Positions 386-16,513 of a DNA stretch of 39,184 nt are shown one piece after another (positions within the stretch are counted from its first letter, which is position 1; each line of letters opens with the position of its first letter). A program made the translations under genes and the position numbers. The DNA comes from a virus (taxonomy: Duplodnaviria; Heunggongvirae; Uroviricota; Caudoviricetes), in IMG/VR virus record IMGVR_UViG_2693429536_000016; one strand, written 5' to 3'. The notes below the pieces were generated by a model, which ran no database searches, was not told the DNA's origin, and saw only the letters and a list, made by a program, of their open reading frames with translations.

Positions 386-1624
386 ATGGCGCTGTCTGAT
401 GCGTGGTTGCGTTCAGTCGTTGGAAAGGAACGTGATAAGGTTTTGGTTAAATCCGATCGTGATGGTCTGTCTGTCAGAGTATCACCGAAAGGTCGCGTAG
501 TGTTCCAATATCGTTATCAATGGGCAGGGAAAGGTGAGCGCCTTGATATCGGAACTTACCCGGCAACTGGATTAAAAGAGGCCAGAGAAGAAGTTATCCG
601 TCTCCGTGGTGAACTCGAGTCAAACCGCAATCCACGATTAGTCAAGCAGGCTGAAAAACGAAAAGCTACTGAAGCCATGACGGTAGAGTCTGTGATCCGT
701 GCCTGGTATGAAGCATATTGTGTAAAAAATAAAAAAGGTTCTGAACAGATACTCCGCTCGTTTGAGCTGCACCTGTTCTCTAAAATCGGGAATATCCCTC
801 ACGATGCAGCTACATTGCATGATTGGTTAGAAGTCCTAGAGCCTCTTAGCACCAAGACTCCAGCAATAGTAGACCGATTGCTAATTAACGCAAAGCAGGC
901 TCATGTCTGGGCGTATAAGAGAAAGCTCATTGAAACTCGCCCACTGTCGGATATCACGGGTAAAGATATGGATATCCGTAAAGGTCAGAAAAAACGGTTT
1001 CTGACACATGATGAAATTAACATCCTTTATGCTGCGATCGATGGTTCTCGAATGGTTCCTAAATACCGAGCCTTCATTAAACTATTGCTGCATTTTGGTT
1101 GCCGTAGTTCAGAGCTAATTACTGCTAGGGTGGATGATTTTGATTTCATAAATAAGGTATGGACTGTACCACCAGAACGACATAAGATTGGGGACATAAC
1201 AGGCGAACCGCTAAAGCGGCCCATTATTGAACCGGTTGAAGAGCTTATAAAATACGTTATCTCTATGAACAACGGTTCCGATATGCTTTTTACTAAGGAA
1301 GGAAGCAGGGAGCCAGTTGGTCGGACATCATTGCAGTCGCTGCCTTACAATTTAATGCAGTTCGCATGGCGACGTTTGGGGTATCAATTTCCTCATTGGT
1401 CTCTTCATGATTTGAGACGAACAGCACGAACAAACTTTTCTGATCTTACTGCTCCTCATATTGCTGAAATAATGCTCGGTCATAAACTGCCAGGGGTATG
1501 GCAAGTTTATGATAAGAGCGATTATCTAGAAGAACAGCGTAAAGCCTATCAGGCATGGTGGGATAGGGTTGATTCGATTCTTACTTACACTAATTTAGGT
1601 TCCAACAGACAGCCTATTGAATAA
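386..1624 (+). CDS. int: Phage integrase, tyrosine recombinase family
   Basis: 412-aa ORF with RBS AAGGTGAG; C-terminal catalytic region has HDLRRT...GH...Y arrangement typical of tyrosine recombinases; positioned at prophage edge next to att-like junction. Confidence 0.9.
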   Translation: MALSDAWLRSVVGKERDKVLVKSDRDGLSVRVSPKGRVVFQYRYQWAGKGERLDIGTYPATGLKEAREEVIRLRGELESNRNPRLVKQAEKRKATEAMTVESVIRAWYEAYCVKNKKGSEQILRSFELHLFSKIGNIPHDAATLHDWLEVLEPLSTKTPAIVDRLLINAKQAHVWAYKRKLIETRPLSDITGKDMDIRKGQKKRFLTHDEINILYAAIDGSRMVPKYRAFIKLLLHFGCRSSELITARVDDFDFINKVWTVPPERHKIGDITGEPLKRPIIEPVEELIKYVISMNNGSDMLFTKEGSREPVGRTSLQSLPYNLMQFAWRRLGYQFPHWSLHDLRRTARTNFSDLTAPHIAEIMLGHKLPGVWQVYDKSDYLEEQRKAYQAWWDRVDSILTYTNLGSNRQPIE

Positions 1625-1738
1625 TGAATAGACATACAGAGTAAGAAAATAGTAATGATTCTTGGATTATAATTAACTGGTTGCTGATATTTCGATTTGC
1701 CGATTTATGAAGAGACGGTCATTATACTTATAAAAACA

Positions 1739-1770
1739 CCACTCCTTATCCTTACAGAAATAAGGAGTGG
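1739..1770. terminator. Perfect 10-bp inverted repeat hairpin between convergent int and deaminase genes (probable bidirectional terminator)
   Basis: CCACTCCTTA(1739-1748) ... TAAGGAGTGG(1761-1770), 12-nt loop; A/T-rich flanks give a U-run on the - strand after the stem. Confidence 0.45.
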
Positions 1771-1776
1771 AAACAG

Positions 1777-3372
1777 TTATGGCTGAGACTCTGGTTTAGC
1801 AATCTCGTTTATAAATTTCTTAGCTACAACAGTCTCATACTTTCTATAATCATCAAGATATTGAACATCTATATGATTTTTGTAGCGAGCATTAAATTTA
1901 TTTGCATCCCCTGTTTTATCATCTTTACGTTCATCCGTTGGTCTGAAAAATTTATGGTAGCGGCGGGGTGATACCCCCTCAAAATCACAAAATATTACTT
2001 TGGAAGATTCTTCGTTCTTTGTTATTGCATCATTATGCAGATCAAGAGCAAGGCTTTTATCAAATGGCTCTATATATACTACTTTTTTTATTCCAGATGC
2101 GACAATATGCCTTGCACAGTTGTGGCAGGGATAGGTTGTCGTAAAAAGAATTTTATCTTTAGTATCGCCGTTTTGTTTTCTAGCCATTGATGTAATGACG
2201 TCCATTTCAGCATGAATTGATCTGGAGTACTCCATTACACTTGATATTTTGCTGTCTTTGTAAATGCCTTCTGCAATATTATCTAATTTGTTTAGAAGTC
2301 GTGTTATATTAATATCGGCAACAGTTTGTCCTGCGGAAATACCTAATACACTTCTTACTTCGGTTGATAATATGCTTTTTATACGGTCTTTAATTTTTTG
2401 CTTGTTTGCATCATTATAACACTTACCACTTTTGTGAACGCATCGATGATCGTTATCAAAATCATCACTGCTATACAACCCGCCACCAGCTTTAGGTACG
2501 TCGTTCTTACCCACGGCAAGCAAATTCCCTTCATCATCAAACAGTGCAGCCCCTACTTGACGTGATAAACAAGCTGATTGTAATGATGTTGAAAAGGCAG
2601 CATACATACCTTTCTCGTTAAAAGTTGGTGTTAAACCATTTTTGCCATGAATAAGACCGAAAAACCGATCAATCTTCTTCTTTAATTCACTTTTTTGGCT
2701 GAAGTTATTTTTAATAAAAAAATCTGAATCAAGAATGGTTTCCCCGGTTCTTTGTCCATACGGATCAGAGGATTTATTATCAATATTAATAATTAAATGA
2801 AGGTCGTCCTTTGTCGATTCGTCAGCAATGAGATTCGTAATTCGGTAATCTAAATCGCGCAAAACTCCTAACAAATAGAAATTATGCTGATATATAACTC
2901 TGAATAACTCTATTTCTTCCGGCCTTTTGAATTGATCAATGATGAAGACAGTACCTTTATATTCATCATTATTATAATCAATATTCTTTTTCGCTGCTGC
3001 GATTGCTGCAATAGCAGCTTCTGCAAGCAACTCATTTTTTTCGTAATGTTTACGAAGTTTATTGGCAATATCCTGGAGTTTTAAATGTCTATTAACTTGT
3101 GTGCTTTCGGATACCTTCAGTGCTGCTGGCTCAAAATATAATGGGTCTTCCATAAGCGCACTTATGCGGATGTGTACAACATTATACCCCCATTCTTTGG
3201 ATATCTCTTCGATAATTTTGTTTATCGTTTTCATGCCACATCCAACATATCCACATAATCCAAGATAAATATCTTTTGATTGTCGTGAATTCACAATCTC
3301 AAGTGATGATGCCGATGTTGAGCCTTTTTTTTCATTCAGCTTTTGTGGAGTTTTTTTTGCTGCTTCAGCCAT
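1777..3372 (-). CDS. Two-domain protein: N-terminal P-loop-like nucleotide kinase-like domain fused to C-terminal cytidine/dCMP deaminase zinc-binding domain (AvcD / anti-phage dCTP-deaminase-like candidate)
   Basis: 531 aa; glycine-rich motif LGLCGYVGCGMKT near N-terminus; C-terminal HAEMDVI ... YPCHNCARHIVASGIKKVVYIEPF (HAE + PCxxC zinc-binding deaminase signature). Low-GC gene inserted between int and xis. Confidence 0.6.
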   Translation of the reverse strand: MAEAAKKTPQKLNEKKGSTSASSLEIVNSRQSKDIYLGLCGYVGCGMKTINKIIEEISKEWGYNVVHIRISALMEDPLYFEPAALKVSESTQVNRHLKLQDIANKLRKHYEKNELLAEAAIAAIAAAKKNIDYNNDEYKGTVFIIDQFKRPEEIELFRVIYQHNFYLLGVLRDLDYRITNLIADESTKDDLHLIINIDNKSSDPYGQRTGETILDSDFFIKNNFSQKSELKKKIDRFFGLIHGKNGLTPTFNEKGMYAAFSTSLQSACLSRQVGAALFDDEGNLLAVGKNDVPKAGGGLYSSDDFDNDHRCVHKSGKCYNDANKQKIKDRIKSILSTEVRSVLGISAGQTVADINITRLLNKLDNIAEGIYKDSKISSVMEYSRSIHAEMDVITSMARKQNGDTKDKILFTTTYPCHNCARHIVASGIKKVVYIEPFDKSLALDLHNDAITKNEESSKVIFCDFEGVSPRRYHKFFRPTDERKDDKTGDANKFNARYKNHIDVQYLDDYRKYETVVAKKFINEIAKPESQP

Positions 3373-3382
3373 TGCTAATTAC

Positions 3383-3568
3383 CTAGTCGAAAACTATATC
3401 AGTATTTATTATTTCAAAAAATGCATCAAGAATTTCTTTATTTTTCTTTTTACTTTCAAATGAAATGACATTATCTTGATTAAATGTTGTTAATTCAATG
3501 CAGATAGAATCAACCTGATCATTGGCGGCGATGCTCGATTCTATTTCATTAAATGCTATTACATTCAT
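3383..3568 (-). CDS. Small acidic hypothetical protein encoded immediately upstream of (and co-oriented with) the deaminase gene
   Basis: 61-aa ORF ending 10 nt before the deaminase start codon; D/E-rich, protein-like composition; weak RBS. Could instead be non-coding leader/sRNA region. Confidence 0.3.
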   Translation of the reverse strand: MNVIAFNEIESSIAANDQVDSICIELTTFNQDNVISFESKKKNKEILDAFFEIINTDIVFD

Positions 3569-3665
3569 TTATCTTATCCAAACATAATAAAAAACCATAT
3601 GGCCTTTAGTGTACAACAAAACCATACTCTTTCCCCTCATTTTAGAGGGGGAAGTGTGGTCCACA

Positions 3666-3932
3666 TCATGTTTTTTCCCACCCATGAAAATGTTCACCTA
3701 GGCTGGTGAGGCATTTTATGTACATCAACTCTTTGAGTTGAATCATTATTTTAGTATTTTTTCTATCATTGTGTAAATGTCTTCGTTTCAATACATCATG
3801 CTTGGGGAGCGGTCCCCGTTTCCTGATAATTAATGCTTGTGGATAGCAACGTCCGTGCCTATATCGCTCAGACAGACGCTTACCGTGCCATAGACGTGTC
3901 TGTTCACATACGTCATTCAATAACTCCTGCAA
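3666..3932 (-). CDS. Hypothetical small basic ORF downstream of xis (doubtful)
   Basis: 88-aa ORF, very R/K/H-rich, overlaps xis 3' end; composition is not convincingly protein-like. Confidence 0.2.
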   Translation of the reverse strand: MQELLNDVCEQTRLWHGKRLSERYRHGRCYPQALIIRKRGPLPKHDVLKRRHLHNDRKNTKIMIQLKELMYIKCLTSLGEHFHGWEKT

Positions 3933-4107
3933 ACCTGTAAATCTTGCGTGACGCCCATTTATTTGGGCATGATTTAATATCAGGATCTGGAAAATCAGGC
4001 CTGTACTTCTGGCCAGTTCTCCGGTTTACGCTGTTCCAGCGAAGAACTGTCGATACTGAAACGCCACAGAATTCGGCAACTTGTTTTGTTGTCATTAAGT
4101 TGTTCAT
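3913..4107 (-). CDS. xis: Excisionase / AlpA-like helix-turn-helix DNA-binding protein
   Basis: Start MNNLMTTKQVAEFCGVSVSTVLRW (HTH) at 4107 in TAATG overlap with upstream gene stop; small size and position near int. Confidence 0.6.
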   Translation of the reverse strand: MNNLMTTKQVAEFCGVSVSTVLRWNSVNRRTGQKYRPDFPDPDIKSCPNKWASRKIYRFAGVIE

Positions 4108-4502
4108 TAGTTCACCTTCTGCGGTTGTGCAGTTGAAAGACTCATTCCAGCGCGTTGCTGCCAGACAACCCAGCCGAGAGCCATATCCCATGCCATGTAC
4201 TCGTTATCGCCGTTTTTGGCTCTCCGACGATCTACTGAGTCACCGAAACGCTTTTCCATGAATAATTCATAAGATATTCGTTCATTTGTGATGGTCATTA
4301 CGGGAGGAGCTAGGTAGAGAGGCGTTCCACCATTTTTGTTGGTAAGTGCAACTACACTTTTACTCAGCATCCATGCCACCGGCTTTTTATCAAGAGAAGC
4401 CAAAGCTATTTGTGCTAGTTCCATTTGCTCGCCACGGGTAAGTCTGTTTTCAAGCGGATTTTTAATGAATAATTCGATACGTTCTTTGGTAATAGAATTC
4501 AT
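4107..4502 (-). CDS. Hypothetical phage early protein
   Basis: 131-aa ORF, translationally coupled (TAGcATG) to upstream gene in the leftward operon. Confidence 0.5.
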   Translation of the reverse strand: MNSITKERIELFIKNPLENRLTRGEQMELAQIALASLDKKPVAWMLSKSVVALTNKNGGTPLYLAPPVMTITNERISYELFMEKRFGDSVDRRRAKNGDNEYMAWDMALGWVVWQQRAGMSLSTAQPQKVN

Positions 4503-4503
4503 G

Positions 4504-4899
4504 CTATTTCACCTTGATCTCAACATTTCGCAGCCGTAGCTCCACTGGCAGGTCTGACTTTCCGGTTAAAGCTAATGCGAGATTTTCTAGAGTAATGAGA
4601 GCTGTTATTGTTTTCCCCATACAGGCGTTATCACCAACACGCTCAAGATGCGGAGGGTCGAATACAACCACCGAAAAAGATGCGTCTGCAAATGGTAATG
4701 CACGAGAATCAGCTATCAGGTCAGGACTGATAATCAGGCGTTGCCCATCGCACAATGTATGCTCTTCCTTTCTGATATCGCTGAATATCGCCCGTTCGTC
4801 ATTTGTATCGAACCAGAACATGCGACTGCCACAGCACATGTCGAGGATTGCTGCATGTCCAGTCACTGGTTGCCCCCTTTGCGAAGCCGTTCCGCCCAT
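4504..4899 (-). CDS. Hypothetical protein with methyltransferase-like motifs (DMCCGS and FDPPH); possible small or fragmentary DNA methyltransferase
   Basis: 131-aa ORF; SAM-binding-like D-x-C-C-G-S and DPPH catalytic-like motif ~60 aa apart; too short for a complete MTase. Confidence 0.4.
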   Translation of the reverse strand: MGGTASQRGQPVTGHAAILDMCCGSRMFWFDTNDERAIFSDIRKEEHTLCDGQRLIISPDLIADSRALPFADASFSVVVFDPPHLERVGDNACMGKTITALITLENLALALTGKSDLPVELRLRNVEIKVK

Positions 4900-5213
4900 T
4901 CTTCAAGGGATTTCTCCGCATATTCACCAGACAGGCCATCAATCGGATGCGATTCATTAGCTAACTCTTCTTTCGCTGACAGAATCATGCGTGTAACGTC
5001 GAAAACTTCAGTCAAAGGCTTATTGATAAATCCGTGATTGAAAGCAGAAGCAAGACGGCTTGCGGTATAGTTAATACCCTCGTTGCGAGCCTCAGCACGT
5101 ACTTCATCGAATTTACGCACCAGATACTCAGCATTTGTTTCATTCACTTTCAGATCTCGCGGTACACATTTCCCGCGAAGAAAACCTTCCATTTCGAAAA
5201 CATTTATGCGCAT
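4863..5213 (-). CDS. Hypothetical phage early protein
   Basis: 116-aa ORF in leftward operon, overlaps neighbours by a few codons. Confidence 0.5.
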   Translation of the reverse strand: MRINVFEMEGFLRGKCVPRDLKVNETNAEYLVRKFDEVRAEARNEGINYTASRLASAFNHGFINKPLTEVFDVTRMILSAKEELANESHPIDGLSGEYAEKSLEEWAERLRKGGNQ

Positions 5214-5821
5214 TTGCGTAACTCCGATAACTCGTTAAAACGTTCCATAAACATCCCGTAGGCATGGCCTGGTGACAGTGGAATAACTTTGAACATCTCT
5301 GTTGCCGGGATGCCTTCCAGTACAGGCCAGAAAGAGCCATCATCAAGCCCGAGATCACGGCGTTCGGTTGCCAGCATGATTAGATCGGCATATTTCACAG
5401 GCGTACTCATAACCGGGGGCAACTCGTATTTCTCACGGATTACTGCGTCTATTTTTTCTTCCATCCGTTTATAGTCAGGAAGAAGGCGTTTCAGTGGTGC
5501 GGGGATGTCCTGGCAATACGCTTCTGTTGCATCATGCATTAACGCTTCAAAAGCAAATTCCTGCGGCACCAGCTGGCTGCAAAGCACCGCATGTTGGGCG
5601 ACGCTGTAGAAGTGAGAAAGATGACCGGCAAAGCGGCAGATATTTGAAAGGGAAACCGCGATATCGTTAATCACGATGTCGTTTTTATTTATCTTGTCAT
5701 AATAAAAATGCTTCCCGGAAAAAGTTTTAATAAATGACATTTTGTTCTCCACGTATATGCGCTGCACCGCGCTGAATTCGGGTAAAAGGAAGCCCTCGCT
5801 ATCAGGCGATTGTTGAGTCAA
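5204..5821 (-). CDS. HD-domain phosphohydrolase (5'-deoxynucleotidase-like, YfdR-like)
   Basis: Motifs ...SVAQHAV... and ...LMHDATE... (H...HD) typical of the HD superfamily; true start may be internal Met (MSFIKTF, ~5740). Confidence 0.6.
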   Translation of the reverse strand: MTQQSPDSEGFLLPEFSAVQRIYVENKMSFIKTFSGKHFYYDKINKNDIVINDIAVSLSNICRFAGHLSHFYSVAQHAVLCSQLVPQEFAFEALMHDATEAYCQDIPAPLKRLLPDYKRMEEKIDAVIREKYELPPVMSTPVKYADLIMLATERRDLGLDDGSFWPVLEGIPATEMFKVIPLSPGHAYGMFMERFNELSELRKCA

Positions 5822-14183: not shown

Positions 14184-15179
14184 GTGACCGTGAGAGCGCT
14201 ACTGACCCCTGAAATTGCCCCGCGTATGGGGATCGTATTGTTCAGGCCAGGTTCAGAGCTGATGCCCCTGTTTATGCAGGGGCGTGTCCTGCTGGAGCCT
14301 GAGCCGGAACGTTATTCATCTTTCGCCAGTGGTGCCGTTCCGGCGGCATCACAACCGCTGGCGGATGATCCTGCCGTTCGGGCCGTGTTCCGCAATGAGG
14401 CAGTGATCCGTCGTGCTGGTGGCGTGGAATGTCTTGAAAGCTGGTTACTTCGTGAAAAAGGCTGCCAGTGGCCTCATTCCGACTGGCACAGCGAGAACAT
14501 GACAACAATGCGACACGCGCCGGGCGCAATCCGTCTGTGCTGGCACTGCGATAACCAGCTGCGCGATCAGTTCACGGAACGACTGGAATCAATGGCAACG
14601 GATAACTGTACCCGCTGGGTGTTGTCTGTTGTGCGTCGGGATCTCGGTTTTGATGACAGTCACGTTGTGACAATGCCGGAACTGTGCTGGTGGCTGATTC
14701 GTAATGACCTGGCGGATGCCTTACCGGAAAGTGCAGCCCGTAAGGCACTGAGATTACCGAAGCCTGTTGTGCCGTCTGTCACCCGGGAAAGTGACCTTGT
14801 GCCTTCGGTTCCTGCCACCAGCATCATCCAGGATAAAGCGAAAAAGGTGCTGGCGCTGAAAGTGGATCCGGAGTCGCCGGAGTCTTTTATGTTACGCCCA
14901 AAACGTCGCCGCTGGGTTAATGAAAAGTACACGCGCTGGGTTAAGACACAGCCGTGTGCATGTTGTGGAAAGCCTGCTGATGATCCCCACCACCTGATAG
15001 GTCACGGTCAGGGTGGAATGGCTACAAAAGCGCATGACCTTTTTGTGTTGCCTTTGTGCAGAAAGCATCACGACGAGCTGCATGCGGATACCGTGGCATT
15101 TGAAGAGAAGTATGGCTCCCAGCTGGAGCTGATATTTCGTTTTATCGATCGTGCGCTGGCAATAGGCGTGCTGGCCTGA
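14184..15179 (+). CDS. DUF968-like phage protein with C-terminal Cys/His (HNH-like) motif
   Basis: GTG start; C-terminus PCACCGKPADDPHHLIGH...LCRKHHDELH has CxxC ... HH ... C ... HH spacing typical of HNH/zinc-finger nuclease folds. Confidence 0.5.
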   Translation: MTVRALLTPEIAPRMGIVLFRPGSELMPLFMQGRVLLEPEPERYSSFASGAVPAASQPLADDPAVRAVFRNEAVIRRAGGVECLESWLLREKGCQWPHSDWHSENMTTMRHAPGAIRLCWHCDNQLRDQFTERLESMATDNCTRWVLSVVRRDLGFDDSHVVTMPELCWWLIRNDLADALPESAARKALRLPKPVVPSVTRESDLVPSVPATSIIQDKAKKVLALKVDPESPESFMLRPKRRRWVNEKYTRWVKTQPCACCGKPADDPHHLIGHGQGGMATKAHDLFVLPLCRKHHDELHADTVAFEEKYGSQLELIFRFIDRALAIGVLA

Positions 15180-15196
15180 TTTTGTGGAGAAAGTTG

Positions 15197-15568
15197 ATGC
15201 GTGATATTCAAATGGTTCTTGAACGTTGGGGGGCATGGGTGGCAAATAATCACGAGGATGTGGAATGGTCATCTGTTGCTGCAGGTTTTAAGGGATTAAT
15301 TCCTTCGAAAGTAAAATCCCGCCCGCAATGTAGCGATGACGATGGCCTGATCATTAGCTCTGCGATGACAGTTCTTAAGAAAAAGGAACCGTATCAATAC
15401 GAATTACTGGAAATGTATTATGTGTATGGGGTTACATTACGGGCGTTGGGGGTAAAACTGGGGATATCACTTAATCAGGTTGTTATCAGACTGCAGAAAG
15501 CTGAAGGGTTTATTGACGGTTGTCTGGCAATGTTGGGGGTATCTTTAGAAATTGATTGTTACATATAG
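15197..15568 (+). CDS. Late-gene antiterminator Q-like protein
   Basis: RBS GGAG 8 nt upstream; located directly upstream of the late/lysis region; N-terminus MRDIQMVLERWGAW resembles Q proteins of 21/82-type lambdoids. Confidence 0.55.
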   Translation: MRDIQMVLERWGAWVANNHEDVEWSSVAAGFKGLIPSKVKSRPQCSDDDGLIISSAMTVLKKKEPYQYELLEMYYVYGVTLRALGVKLGISLNQVVIRLQKAEGFIDGCLAMLGVSLEIDCYI

Positions 15569-15643
15569 TAATAAATTCAATCAAAGTAAATAATCATATT
15601 TTATAATAACCTCCTGATGATACCTGTTCATTGGGAGGTTATT

Positions 15644-16261
15644 ATGGATAAAAATGTAGAGCATGTATTAGTTGATGCAATTGAAAATAAGCAATCTTTA
15701 ACAGTCGTTTACTTAGGAGGGAGCCAGCCCGGAACATTAAGGAATATTTCTCCGATTAGTATAAATGGGGATAAGTTGCGGGCAAGATGCCATAGTTCTG
15801 GAGCAGTAAAGGTTTTCAATCTTGGGAAAATACAGTTACCCAGTAACTCCTGCGCGGTATCTATGCACTATGGAGATTTAGAAGTTAAAGCTTATGAGAC
15901 GATGCAGAGCGTAAATGACAACTTTCATGCCCTTTATCCTGAAGGACGATGGGGTGTTGATTTTAATGAGCATCGCTTTGCTTTATTTGATTTTTTTAAA
16001 AACGGGAAACGAAAAAAAACGGCATTTATGGCAATTGAGTTCAGGGAAAGAGATGAAGAGAAAATAATAACAGGTGTAACAATTGATATTGGTATATCTG
16101 GAACAGTGATTTCTGAGAAATCCCGAATCCCAAAAAGACGACCATGGGTAGTGGTTGGTCCCGAACACGGAGAATACAGTACTTATTCAACTTTGGACAA
16201 GGCTGCTACAGCGTTTTTTGAGAGGCTTTCGTTGATAGCATCCGGCCTGGAAGATAATTGA
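15644..16261 (+). CDS. Low-GC moron gene of unknown function between Q and the lysis cassette
   Basis: 206-aa ORF with strong RBS GGGAGG; AT-rich relative to flanking phage genes; start codon and RBS lie within a 12-bp inverted repeat (15603-15614 / 15634-15645). Confidence 0.55.
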   Translation: MDKNVEHVLVDAIENKQSLTVVYLGGSQPGTLRNISPISINGDKLRARCHSSGAVKVFNLGKIQLPSNSCAVSMHYGDLEVKAYETMQSVNDNFHALYPEGRWGVDFNEHRFALFDFFKNGKRKKTAFMAIEFRERDEEKIITGVTIDIGISGTVISEKSRIPKRRPWVVVGPEHGEYSTYSTLDKAATAFFERLSLIASGLEDN

Positions 16262-16392
16262 TTTTATGTTTGGTATTCAGAGTTCGCCGTGCTTAAGAAA
16301 GTCAAGATTCTAAAAATACTGAATGAGCTACTTGTGTTATAACAAAAATGCTATTAGTGTGTTAAGAGTGGTTACTTCGCCACACAACTTAA

Positions 16393-16416
16393 ACCCGCCA
16401 CTGAGCGGGTTTTTTG
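16393..16416 (+). terminator. Rho-independent terminator (candidate tR' / moron terminator)
   Basis: ACCCGC cactga GCGGGT followed by TTTTTT. Confidence 0.6.
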
Positions 16417-16513
16417 TACCTGTAAACTTGGTGCAGTACAGTAAACACGCTGGTGGTCGTGAATACTGACTTTTTATCTTGCTGGCTTTTTAGACAAGAG
16501 TTATTGGTATGTC

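Follow-up and report, generated by a model that had tools for sequence, protein, structure and literature searches.

The closest described relatives of the locus considered here are the AvcID systems, in which a deaminase, AvcD, is paired with a small locus, avcI. In Vibrio cholerae, DcdV/AvcD is inhibited post-translationally by DifV/AvcI, which acts in trans from a second plasmid, and difV constructs in which the start codon was changed to a stop, or which lacked the ribosome-binding site, still neutralised the deaminase, so that the authors concluded that the inhibitor is a small RNA (sRNA) (10.1101/2021.03.31.437871). In the homologous systems of V. parahaemolyticus, Proteus mirabilis and enterotoxigenic Escherichia coli (ETEC) H10407 a small hypothetical open reading frame (ORF) lies 5' of avcD; each locus neutralises its cognate enzyme, cross-inhibition between AvcI/AvcD pairs is cognate-specific, and AvcI was described by its authors as devoid of repeats (10.1101/2021.03.31.437871). 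Decay of the AvcI RNA after transcription shut-off or infection activates AvcD, as rifampicin does and spectinomycin does not, while the active form and the biogenesis of AvcI are unresolved according to the same authors (PMC10511110). The ETEC system has been reported to deplete deoxycytidine (dC) nucleotides and to protect against phages (10.1101/2021.03.31.437871; PMC10511110), and a review of 2025 still terms AvcI a non-coding RNA. The present analysis deals with a cassette of this kind in a 39,184-nucleotide (nt) stretch of DNA (IMG/VR record IMGVR_UViG_2693429536_000016, Caudoviricetes; the whole stretch is called the window below), which is a lambda-like E. coli prophage adjoining yjjG. 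An avcD-type gene for a protein of 531 amino acids (aa) is there preceded by a 61-aa ORF. The prophage allele is one more copy of a catalogued nucleotide-depletion system; the unexpected point is that the upstream ORF, at the supposedly non-coding AvcI position, evolves like a protein-coding gene.

The 531-aa protein is an already catalogued member of the AvcD family of anti-phage dCTP deaminases and represents nothing new as a defence gene. It matches the PADLOC dCTPase model PDLC02373 with an E-value of 9.9e-165 and the NCBIfam equivalog NF041025, 'anti-phage dCTP deaminase', with 468.1 bits over profile positions 2-437 of 437, the curated cutoff being 400 bits. The identical RefSeq protein, WP_021529725.1, bears the same name (also in strain PCP06101), 336 contigs carry the exact sequence under the heading 'MULTISPECIES: anti-phage dCTP deaminase [Escherichia]', and 49 of 5426 complete E. 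coli genomes (~1%) have the allele, with 98.4-100% nucleotide identity. The profile and PADLOC searches proposed in the initial annotation, which had been made from the DNA alone, have thus upheld its call of an AvcD/dCTP-deaminase-like protein, as have both folds, the motif residues and the defence-island and mobile-element contexts of the homologues. Its conditional idea of an undescribed variant is not supported, since the identical protein is already named in RefSeq and the unusual P-loop is the norm in the family.

As in AvcD, an N-terminal kinase-like domain with Walker-A- and Walker-B-like motifs is joined to a C-terminal cytidine deaminase fold with the H-A-E and P-C-x-x-C signatures. 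The translation contains both stretches quoted in the initial annotation, LGLCGYVGCGMKT over residues 37-49 and HAEMDV ... PCHNCARHIVASGIKKVVYIEPF starting at residue 387, and the case it had allowed for, an N-domain without a kinase fold, does not apply: a kinase fold was found there, and the C-domain resembles the dCMP deaminases of T4, S-TIM5 and PBCV-1. In all of 38 diverse homologues, which range down to 40% identity, C40, G41, G44, D146, Q147, K149, H387-A-E389 and P415-C-H-x-C419 are unchanged, and 37 of these homologues also have G46. The Walker-A-like loop follows the family pattern CGxxGxG-h-[KR]-[ST], with one residue more than the canonical GxxxxGK[ST], so that, judged by the alignment, the extended loop is usual for the family and marks no variant. 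Mutations of the G and C residues in this motif abolish the defence conferred by the E. coli AW1.7 enzyme (10.1101/2021.04.26.441389), and a D162A+Q163A mutant of V. cholerae DcdV/AvcD was aimed at the Walker-B-like motif; in the published enzymes of E. coli AW1.7 and V. cholerae, activity or defence is lost when the motifs formed by these invariant residues are mutated. The AlphaFold2 model of the protein has a mean predicted local distance difference test (pLDDT) value of 82.6; no solved structure of a close relative was found, and the structure matches obtained by sequence were dCMP deaminases only. A polymorphic-toxin deaminase was also considered, and was rejected on the grounds that the MafB19-deam and Bd3614-deam Pfam matches are weaker and overlap the same zinc motif.

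The comparison with described enzymes is in keeping with this assignment. The E. coli AW1.7 and U09 dCTP deaminases share with the window protein the kinase-like N-domain, the zinc deaminase and the same kind of profile; both domains are required for defence and dCTP depletion, and the genes were cloned with their native upstream regions (10.1101/2021.04.26.441389). The AW1.7 protein, however, has 576 aa against 531 aa in the window, and AW1.7/U09 was described as a single-gene system without a partner. The Vibrio systems (DcdV/DifV of V. cholerae VSP-1 and that of V. parahaemolyticus) have the same two-domain enzyme with the Walker-B DQ, HAE and PCxxC motifs and a similar habitat in mobile elements and defence islands, although the Vibrio deaminase homologues are only 44-45% identical in aa sequence to the window protein. 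With T4 Cd (1vq2), the Streptococcus mutans enzyme (2hvv), the PBCV-1 bi-DCD (7fh4) and ComEB, the C-domain has in common the fold and the zinc-site chemistry, whereas housekeeping and phage dCMP deaminases have neither the kinase-like N-domain nor the upstream inhibitor locus and obey another genomic logic. Housekeeping enzymes of the ComEB/Dcd type are single domains of ~150-190 aa, unlike the 531-aa protein with its additional domain, and the ComEB equivalog TIGR02571 reaches only 39.9 bits, over residues 384-448 only, against a cutoff of 219.45 bits; the best homologues are not the housekeeping dCMP deaminases which, according to the initial annotation, would have spoken against its proposal.

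The 61-aa ORF matches PHROG phrog_9966 and its stop codon (3385-3383) lies exactly 10 nt before the deaminase ATG (3372). The initial annotation had described it as a D/E-rich ORF 10 nt upstream, and both the spacing and the composition (12 D+E against 4 K+R) are as stated. Homologues of 61 aa and 75-98% identity occur in at least 10 enterobacterial genera, with Serratia, Budvicia, Yersinia, Klebsiella, Proteus, Salmonella, Morganella, Enterobacter and Cronobacter among them, and they stand 9-10 nt ahead of the 531-aa deaminase gene in every locus retrieved from the window's clade (one Klebsiella deaminase being split). For the wider family, which was sampled by exact-protein look-ups and by a metagenome scan with the deaminase alignment, a called upstream ORF of 58-63 aa accompanies every sampled deaminase homologue, from 98% down to 44% identity, and 72 of the 76 metagenomic loci have one with a length of at least 30 aa (those without being L087, L100, L108 and L112). 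Under a stricter definition, with an ATG start on the same strand and an end between 120 nt upstream of and 20 nt inside the deaminase start, an ORF of at least 45 aa was retained in 53 of 61 diverse metagenomic loci, whose deaminases are 36-99% identical, against 6.4 from shuffled upstream sequence. The arrangement typical of AvcID, a co-oriented small locus directly 5' of avcD that is transferred along with it, is present here, with the same pair in every homologous locus examined, and the two-component module put forward in the initial annotation fits the published layout, in which small ORFs lie 5' of avcD, that of ETEC included (10.1101/2021.03.31.437871).

Several signals point to a coding function of this ORF. 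In 40 of the 53 retained upstream ORFs a Trp residue directly precedes the stop codon, and in 45 Trp-terminal tails TAA, TAG and TGA all serve as stop, a conserved Leu at position -3 is written with all six codons, and the codon for Ala or Ser at -6 never varies in its second base but almost freely in its third (1.74 bits); the conservation of the tail thus appears to act at the amino-acid level and not at the nucleotide level. Shine-Dalgarno sequences precede the small-ORF starts, the mean free energy (dG) of the anti-Shine-Dalgarno duplex being -6.1 kcal/mol versus -2.3 kcal/mol at random positions (p 1e-18). Pairs of small ORFs from distant clades give ratios of non-synonymous to synonymous substitution (dN/dS) of 0.16-0.42, synonymous sites being saturated in several pairs, while within the window's clade the pairwise omega is mostly 0.1-0.35. 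In the same clade the corresponding polymorphism ratio (pN/pS) is 0.37 in frame versus 0.91 and 0.86 in the shifted frames. Tree-aware parsimony assigns 46, 45 and 97 small-ORF changes to codon positions 1, 2 and 3, respectively (p 7e-7). Nine homologues contain no stop in the small-ORF frame and 3-14 stops in each other sense frame of the 186 nt; since these frames are full of stops, the open 61-codon frame is not a chance product of a stretch with 27% GC. On these comparative grounds, the upstream locus is best described as an ORF under purifying selection.

The conserved part of the small protein comprises a C-terminal amphipathic helix of ~15 residues and a central xVVxF strand. In the enterobacterial clade, which includes the window and the ETEC plasmid p58, the terminal ...LxW is replaced by (D/E)I(I/V/N)(F/L)D and the protein is acidic instead of basic. 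A comparison with hhalign relates the FD-type weakly to the Trp-type proteins, with 47% probability (E 2e-4) over 27 columns that take in the NV(I/V)xF strand and the beginning of the helix, which suggests, though it does not prove, that both types are homologous. A third type of upstream ORF (metagenomic loci L099, L104, L113, L121 and L122) keeps an ALxRILxFAxxL helix and ends in ...TLPG(Q/K), ...SLPNK... or ...TLAL, not in Trp. The enterobacterial profile retrieved two 61-aa clusters only from 1.84 billion representatives, a word-indexed search with the Trp-type alignment gave 16 matches only, and a pattern scan of genome contigs with the small-ORF alignment found one locus among the matches listed; with so few matches, the family evolves too fast to be sized by sequence search, and synteny is needed for this purpose.

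The same locus also carries signals at the RNA level. In the window's clade a conserved hairpin of ~16 base pairs lies in the 5' half of the small ORF, with 94-100% of cells paired and 7 of the 16 pairs changed on both sides; over the whole consensus structure, 11 pairs have such double changes, where shuffles give 3.0 +/- 1.5 and slid controls 0-3. These counts are inflated, since one and the same alignment served both to derive the structure and to make the counts. Independent single-sequence minimum free energy (MFE) folds of diverged homologues place the hairpin at the same position, with z-scores of -1.8 to -4.1. For the window sequence the MFE z-score is -0.98 alone and +0.37 with flanks, so that the hairpin is visible only comparatively, as the thermodynamic stability of this sequence by itself flags no RNA. 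Most non-enterobacterial small-ORF RNAs show no excess of folding stability (z about 0). A Rfam scan of 1500-4300 at E<=1 returned no match, the avcI position being covered by no described RNA family, and a search for tandem or direct repeat families in 1550-4000 found none except one 9-nt pair, so that repeats of the ToxIN kind are not present. By the comparative evidence, then, the upstream locus of this clade is a conserved RNA hairpin as well as an ORF. The remark in the initial annotation that a protein, and not an sRNA, might be the partner proved to be the one point that merited further analysis: the locus evolves as a coding gene, and the clade keeps an RNA hairpin too.

These coding signatures, as read from the alignments, contradict the published label of AvcI as 'non-coding'. 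A literature search, in which preprints stood for the two main studies, found no paper describing AvcI as coding. The locus closest to a tested system is that of ETEC H10407 plasmid p58 (NC_017723.1, 5800 bp), where a 61-aa ORF (WP_000070788.1) is followed after 12 nt by a 532-aa deaminase (WP_000951932.1); it is presumably the 'E. coli ETEC AvcID' of Hsueh et al. It shares with the window the length of the upstream ORF, the type of C-terminus (...KEIILD), the central NVVDF strand and the RefSeq name of the deaminase, and differs from it in that the deaminase is 62% and the small ORF ~22-25% identical, and in that it resides on a 5.8-kb mobilisable plasmid, not in a prophage. The plasmid also holds mobilisation and replication genes, and its relative L023 adds a RelE/HTH (helix-turn-helix) pair. 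A V. parahaemolyticus-type locus (L028) likewise has a co-oriented ORF of ~58-61 codons directly 5' of the deaminase, although its product is basic and ends in ...ASKLGW, whereas that of the window is acidic and ends in ...DIVFD, and its spacer has 76 nt instead of 10 nt. In the published Vibrio systems the antitoxin is an RNA, whereas the window's clade is known from sequence alone. Type III toxin-antitoxin (TA) systems such as ToxIN resemble AvcID in the co-transcribed labile upstream RNA proposed to neutralise the toxin and in the activation after transcription shut-off; they differ from the window in that the toxin is an endoribonuclease instead of a nucleotide deaminase, that classical antitoxins are not protein-coding, and that the antitoxin RNA consists of tandem direct repeats which the toxin processes.

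Nucleotide homology to cassettes in unrelated contexts starts at ~3700-3857 and ends at ~1729, with the terminal hairpin included, and because homology stops there across such contexts, the mobile unit consists of leader, small ORF, deaminase and terminator, ~2.1 kb from ~3700/3790 to ~1730 on the minus strand. The hairpin begins 7 nt past the deaminase stop and has perfect 11-nt arms (CCACTCCTTAT/ATAAGGAGTGG), followed by TGTTTTTAT; the perfect 10-bp hairpin of the initial annotation is thus real and its length is to be corrected. Between the two genes, 10 homologues share an unvarying GATTAGG, and in the window's clade the spacer always has 9-12 nt; as the TAG stop of the small ORF is embedded in the SD (Shine-Dalgarno)-like TAGG(T/A) of the deaminase, translational coupling from the small ORF to the deaminase is plausible. 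Upstream, the 120 nt before the small ORF (-120..-1) are as conserved as coding sequence. They contain a -10-like TACACT at 3613-3608, within the invariant motif TTTTGT(A/T)GTA.A.T, and a partly conserved CCCCTC-TAAAAT-GAGGGG stem-loop (3651-3633) lies upstream of this element. A 42-aa GTG ORF at 3569-3697 (-), across the conserved leader, looks spurious.

The same geometry (a 186-nt ORF, 10 nt, a 531-aa gene) recurs in very different genomic settings. Homologous cassettes are found in a P4-like satellite of Klebsiella, with integrases as neighbours in Budvicia and Enterobacter, with GmrSD or a BamHI-type restriction-modification system as neighbour on contigs with the Salmonella-type small ORF, within conjugative tra regions and on plasmids of 4.6-5.9 kb. 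Tiny plasmids holding little beyond the small ORF and the deaminase were also seen, namely 4753-bp contigs (L025/L026) and E. coli plasmids of 4615-4626 bp. In Klebsiella CP098771.1 (L011, 3501-5290) the small ORF is intact and the deaminase is split into pieces of 407 and 73 aa, a natural case in which the partner locus outlives the enzyme. The features of the window are collected in Table 1.

Table 1. Position and nature of the features of the deaminase cassette and of its prophage neighbours (window coordinates)
Feature	Position	Strand	Basis or remark
Tyrosine integrase (int)	386-1624	+	Pfam Phage_integrase and Arm-DNA-bind_3; convergent with the cassette
Intrinsic-terminator-like hairpin with T-rich tail, 3' end of cassette	1730-1770 (stem-loop 1770-1739)	-	Fold/repeat search and cross-cassette homology
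avcD-type anti-phage dCTP/dCMP deaminase gene, 531 aa	1777-3372	-	PADLOC, NCBIfam, RefSeq name
C-terminal zinc-dependent cytidine/dCMP deaminase domain, residues ~252-480	1933-2619	-	
P415-C-H-N-C419	2116-2130	-	Deaminase domain
H387-A-E389	2206-2214	-	Deaminase domain
N-terminal P-loop kinase-like (PLK) domain, residues ~35-245	2638-3270	-	
Walker-B-like D146-Q147, end of hydrophobic strand VFIIDQ	2932-2937	-	Kept in 38/38 homologues
Walker-A-like loop C40-G-Y-V-G-C-G-M-K-T49	3226-3255	-	Homologue conservation
Spacer, 10 nt	3373-3382	-	TAG stop of small ORF overlaps TAGG(T/A) Shine-Dalgarno-like element of deaminase
Acidic small ORF, 61 aa, corresponding in position to the avcI (difV) antitoxin locus of the literature	3383-3568	-	Evolves as a protein-coding gene
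Conserved RNA hairpin, ~16 bp, 5' half of small ORF	3493-3554	-	RNAalifold helices 3 and 4
Conserved 5' leader, putative promoter region	3569-3700	-	Alignment; function inferred
Excisionase (xis)	3913-4191	-	PHROG phrog_1553, E 3.5e-35; annotated 'excisionase' in phages 2H10 and cdtI

Taken together, the locus is very probably a self-contained ~2.1-kb AvcID/anti-phage dCTP deaminase cassette, a moron in the int-xis interval of the prophage, and its mode of action can be proposed by homology. Defence, nucleotide depletion and the trigger are here read across from the characterised Vibrio and E. coli homologues. In the uninfected lysogen, a promoter of the cassette's own would drive a transcript with the small ORF and the deaminase, and the 531-aa enzyme would be kept inactive post-translationally by a labile product of the avcI-equivalent locus. 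A superinfecting lytic phage, by stopping host transcription, would cause the inhibitor to decay, and the freed enzyme would deaminate dCTP and dCMP to dUTP and dUMP; the resulting collapse of the dC pool would starve phage DNA replication.

A number of points weigh against this picture. A consensus promoter scan gave 8 sites versus 11.1 expected from shuffled sequence, that is, no enrichment in favour of a promoter of its own. The nearest homologue that could be linked with a tested strain shares only 62% identity with the window protein (the comparison being made with L023, a near-identical copy of the p58 locus, 99.5% at the nucleotide level), and the equivalence of the p58 protein WP_000951932.1 with the preprint accession WP_096882215.1 could not be confirmed. 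AvcD homologues vary in the phages which they stop, so that the protection spectrum of the window allele is not predictable. As regards the small ORF, its own Shine-Dalgarno sequence in the window is weak (duplex dG -3.1 kcal/mol), and the AlphaFold model of the 61-aa protein is poor (pLDDT 47.7). In relation to the promoter, a -35/-10 site at 3777-3748 was dropped, as the scan was not above shuffled sequence, and TACACT at 3613-3608, which is better conserved than that site, may be suggested as a candidate -10 element.

With respect to the partner, one reading, about as likely as not, is that the avcI locus is not purely non-coding and, in the window and throughout the family, encodes a protein of ~50-70 aa which would share the control of the deaminase, alone or together with its structured RNA, as a dual-function RNA or a mixed type II/III TA system. 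The proposed protein would have the central xVVxF strand and the C-terminal amphipathic helix, with an invariant Trp end in most clades and a (D/E)I(I/V)FD end in the enterobacterial clade of the window. SgrS/SgrT is an example of a dual-function RNA. Since the published genetics and biochemistry favour an RNA and the comparative data show a coding gene, such a dual function is plausible as the simplest reconciliation, and would reconcile the RNA signals with the coding signals at the upstream locus. If the ORF is indeed translated and functional, the model of activation by decay of a labile RNA needs a second player, the catalogues which list the dCTP deaminase as a single-gene system need a second component, and the invariant C-terminal Trp offers an immediate handle for mutagenesis.

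A first alternative, possible if unlikely, is that of a protein antitoxin of type II-like character, in which the translated ~60-aa product would itself, or for the most part, inhibit or regulate the deaminase, be it in this clade or throughout the family, and the RNA would be chiefly its messenger. All the coding signals given above are what such a protein would produce: the retention of the upstream ORF far beyond the shuffled expectation and the Trp before the stop, the use of all three stops, of six Leu codons and of free third bases in the tails, the ribosome-binding sites, the substitution ratios in distant clades and within the window's clade, and the excess of third-position changes. 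The cognate specificity of cross-inhibition (10.1101/2021.03.31.437871) would also be explicable by a protein partner. The V. cholerae constructs with a stopped start codon or lacking the ribosome-binding site nevertheless neutralise (10.1101/2021.03.31.437871), activation by rifampicin but not by spectinomycin argues against a labile protein inhibitor (PMC10511110), and the compensatory changes in the hairpin of the window's clade would be left over.

The opposite alternative, that the upstream locus is purely the AvcI sRNA antitoxin and the ORF is untranslated or gives a product without function, is likewise unlikely. It draws on the genetics and northern blots of V. cholerae and V. parahaemolyticus (10.1101/2021.03.31.437871; PMC10511110), on the non-coding status maintained in the 2025 review, and on the clade hairpin, with its double-sided pair changes (11 vs 3.0 +/- 1.5 in shuffles) and MFE z-scores down to -4.1. 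Three-base periodicity, a frame-specific pN/pS and ribosome-binding sites are, however, not expected of an untranslated RNA, nor is an ORF kept through saturated synonymous divergence, with an amino-acid motif whose codons vary freely; moreover, the folding of most non-enterobacterial small-ORF RNAs is unremarkable and no Rfam family matches.

A reading in which the small ORF is translated chiefly for an effect in cis, as a leader peptide which would set the translation of the deaminase by stop-start coupling or would govern the processing and stability of the RNA, with no trans-acting protein, is quite unlikely. The position of the TAG stop inside the SD-like TAGG of the deaminase and the fixed spacer of 9-12 nt, both in the window's clade, would be accounted for in this manner. 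As a lead, the conserved C-terminal residue before the stop recalls regulatory nascent peptides such as TnaC. The gap nevertheless ranges over 8-115 nt in other clades, so that coupling is not universal, the conservation spans the whole C-terminal helix and the central strand, and in V. cholerae difV is effective when supplied in trans on a second plasmid (10.1101/2021.03.31.437871). Finally, the notion that the enzyme is not a defence protein at all and that it acts as a phage dCMP deaminase like T4 cd, supplying dUMP/dTTP for prophage replication, is hardly tenable: the resemblance of the C-domain to the T4, S-TIM5 and PBCV-1 enzymes and weaker PHROG 'dCMP deaminase' matches speak in its favour, whereas the ComEB score far below its cutoff (39.9 bits vs 219), the family-defining kinase-like N-domain, the location outside the replication module with a separate leader and terminator and an orientation opposite to int, and the recurrence of the same cassette in non-phage contexts, beside restriction systems and on small plasmids, all speak against it.

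Regarding the prophage setting, the cassette is cargo between int and xis, with the stop codon side of the deaminase ORF facing the integrase. The GC content is 0.34-0.36 across 1500-4000 versus 0.45-0.58 in most of the window, so that the AT-rich block between int and xis, with the deaminase convergent to int, is as the initial annotation had described it. Window positions 1500-4300 are found as 100% identical DNA in E. coli PCP06101. Phages 2H10 (NC_049950.1) and cdtI and Stx-converting phages match the int end of the window and xis and are without the cassette; since these related lambdoid phages do not have it, the int-xis junction is, in this group of phages, a slot whose cargo varies. 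In several E. coli strains of bovine or Shiga-toxin-producing type (e.g. NZ_CM169999.1, NZ_AP042480.1 and NZ_CP013662.1) the match to the cassette is cut into 2-3 pieces by the insertion sequences IS421 and/or IS1A, and the defence module may therefore be inactive in those strains.

Other features of the prophage were recorded in passing. YfdR, annotated as a 5'-deoxynucleotidase (5204-5821, minus strand), is a second enzyme of the deoxynucleotide pool, ~2 kb from the deaminase. A 131-aa ORF at 4504-4899 (-) matches the N-terminal half only of type II/orphan DNA methyltransferase models (PADLOC MTase_II, E 3e-30) and is probably a decayed methyltransferase, as RefSeq marks pseudogene fragments there. 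A second block of low GC content, at ~15000-16500 (GC 0.38-0.41, with an unusually high GC skew of 0.21-0.25), corresponds by coordinate mapping to the cold-shock cluster cspB/cspF of the lysis-region cargo.

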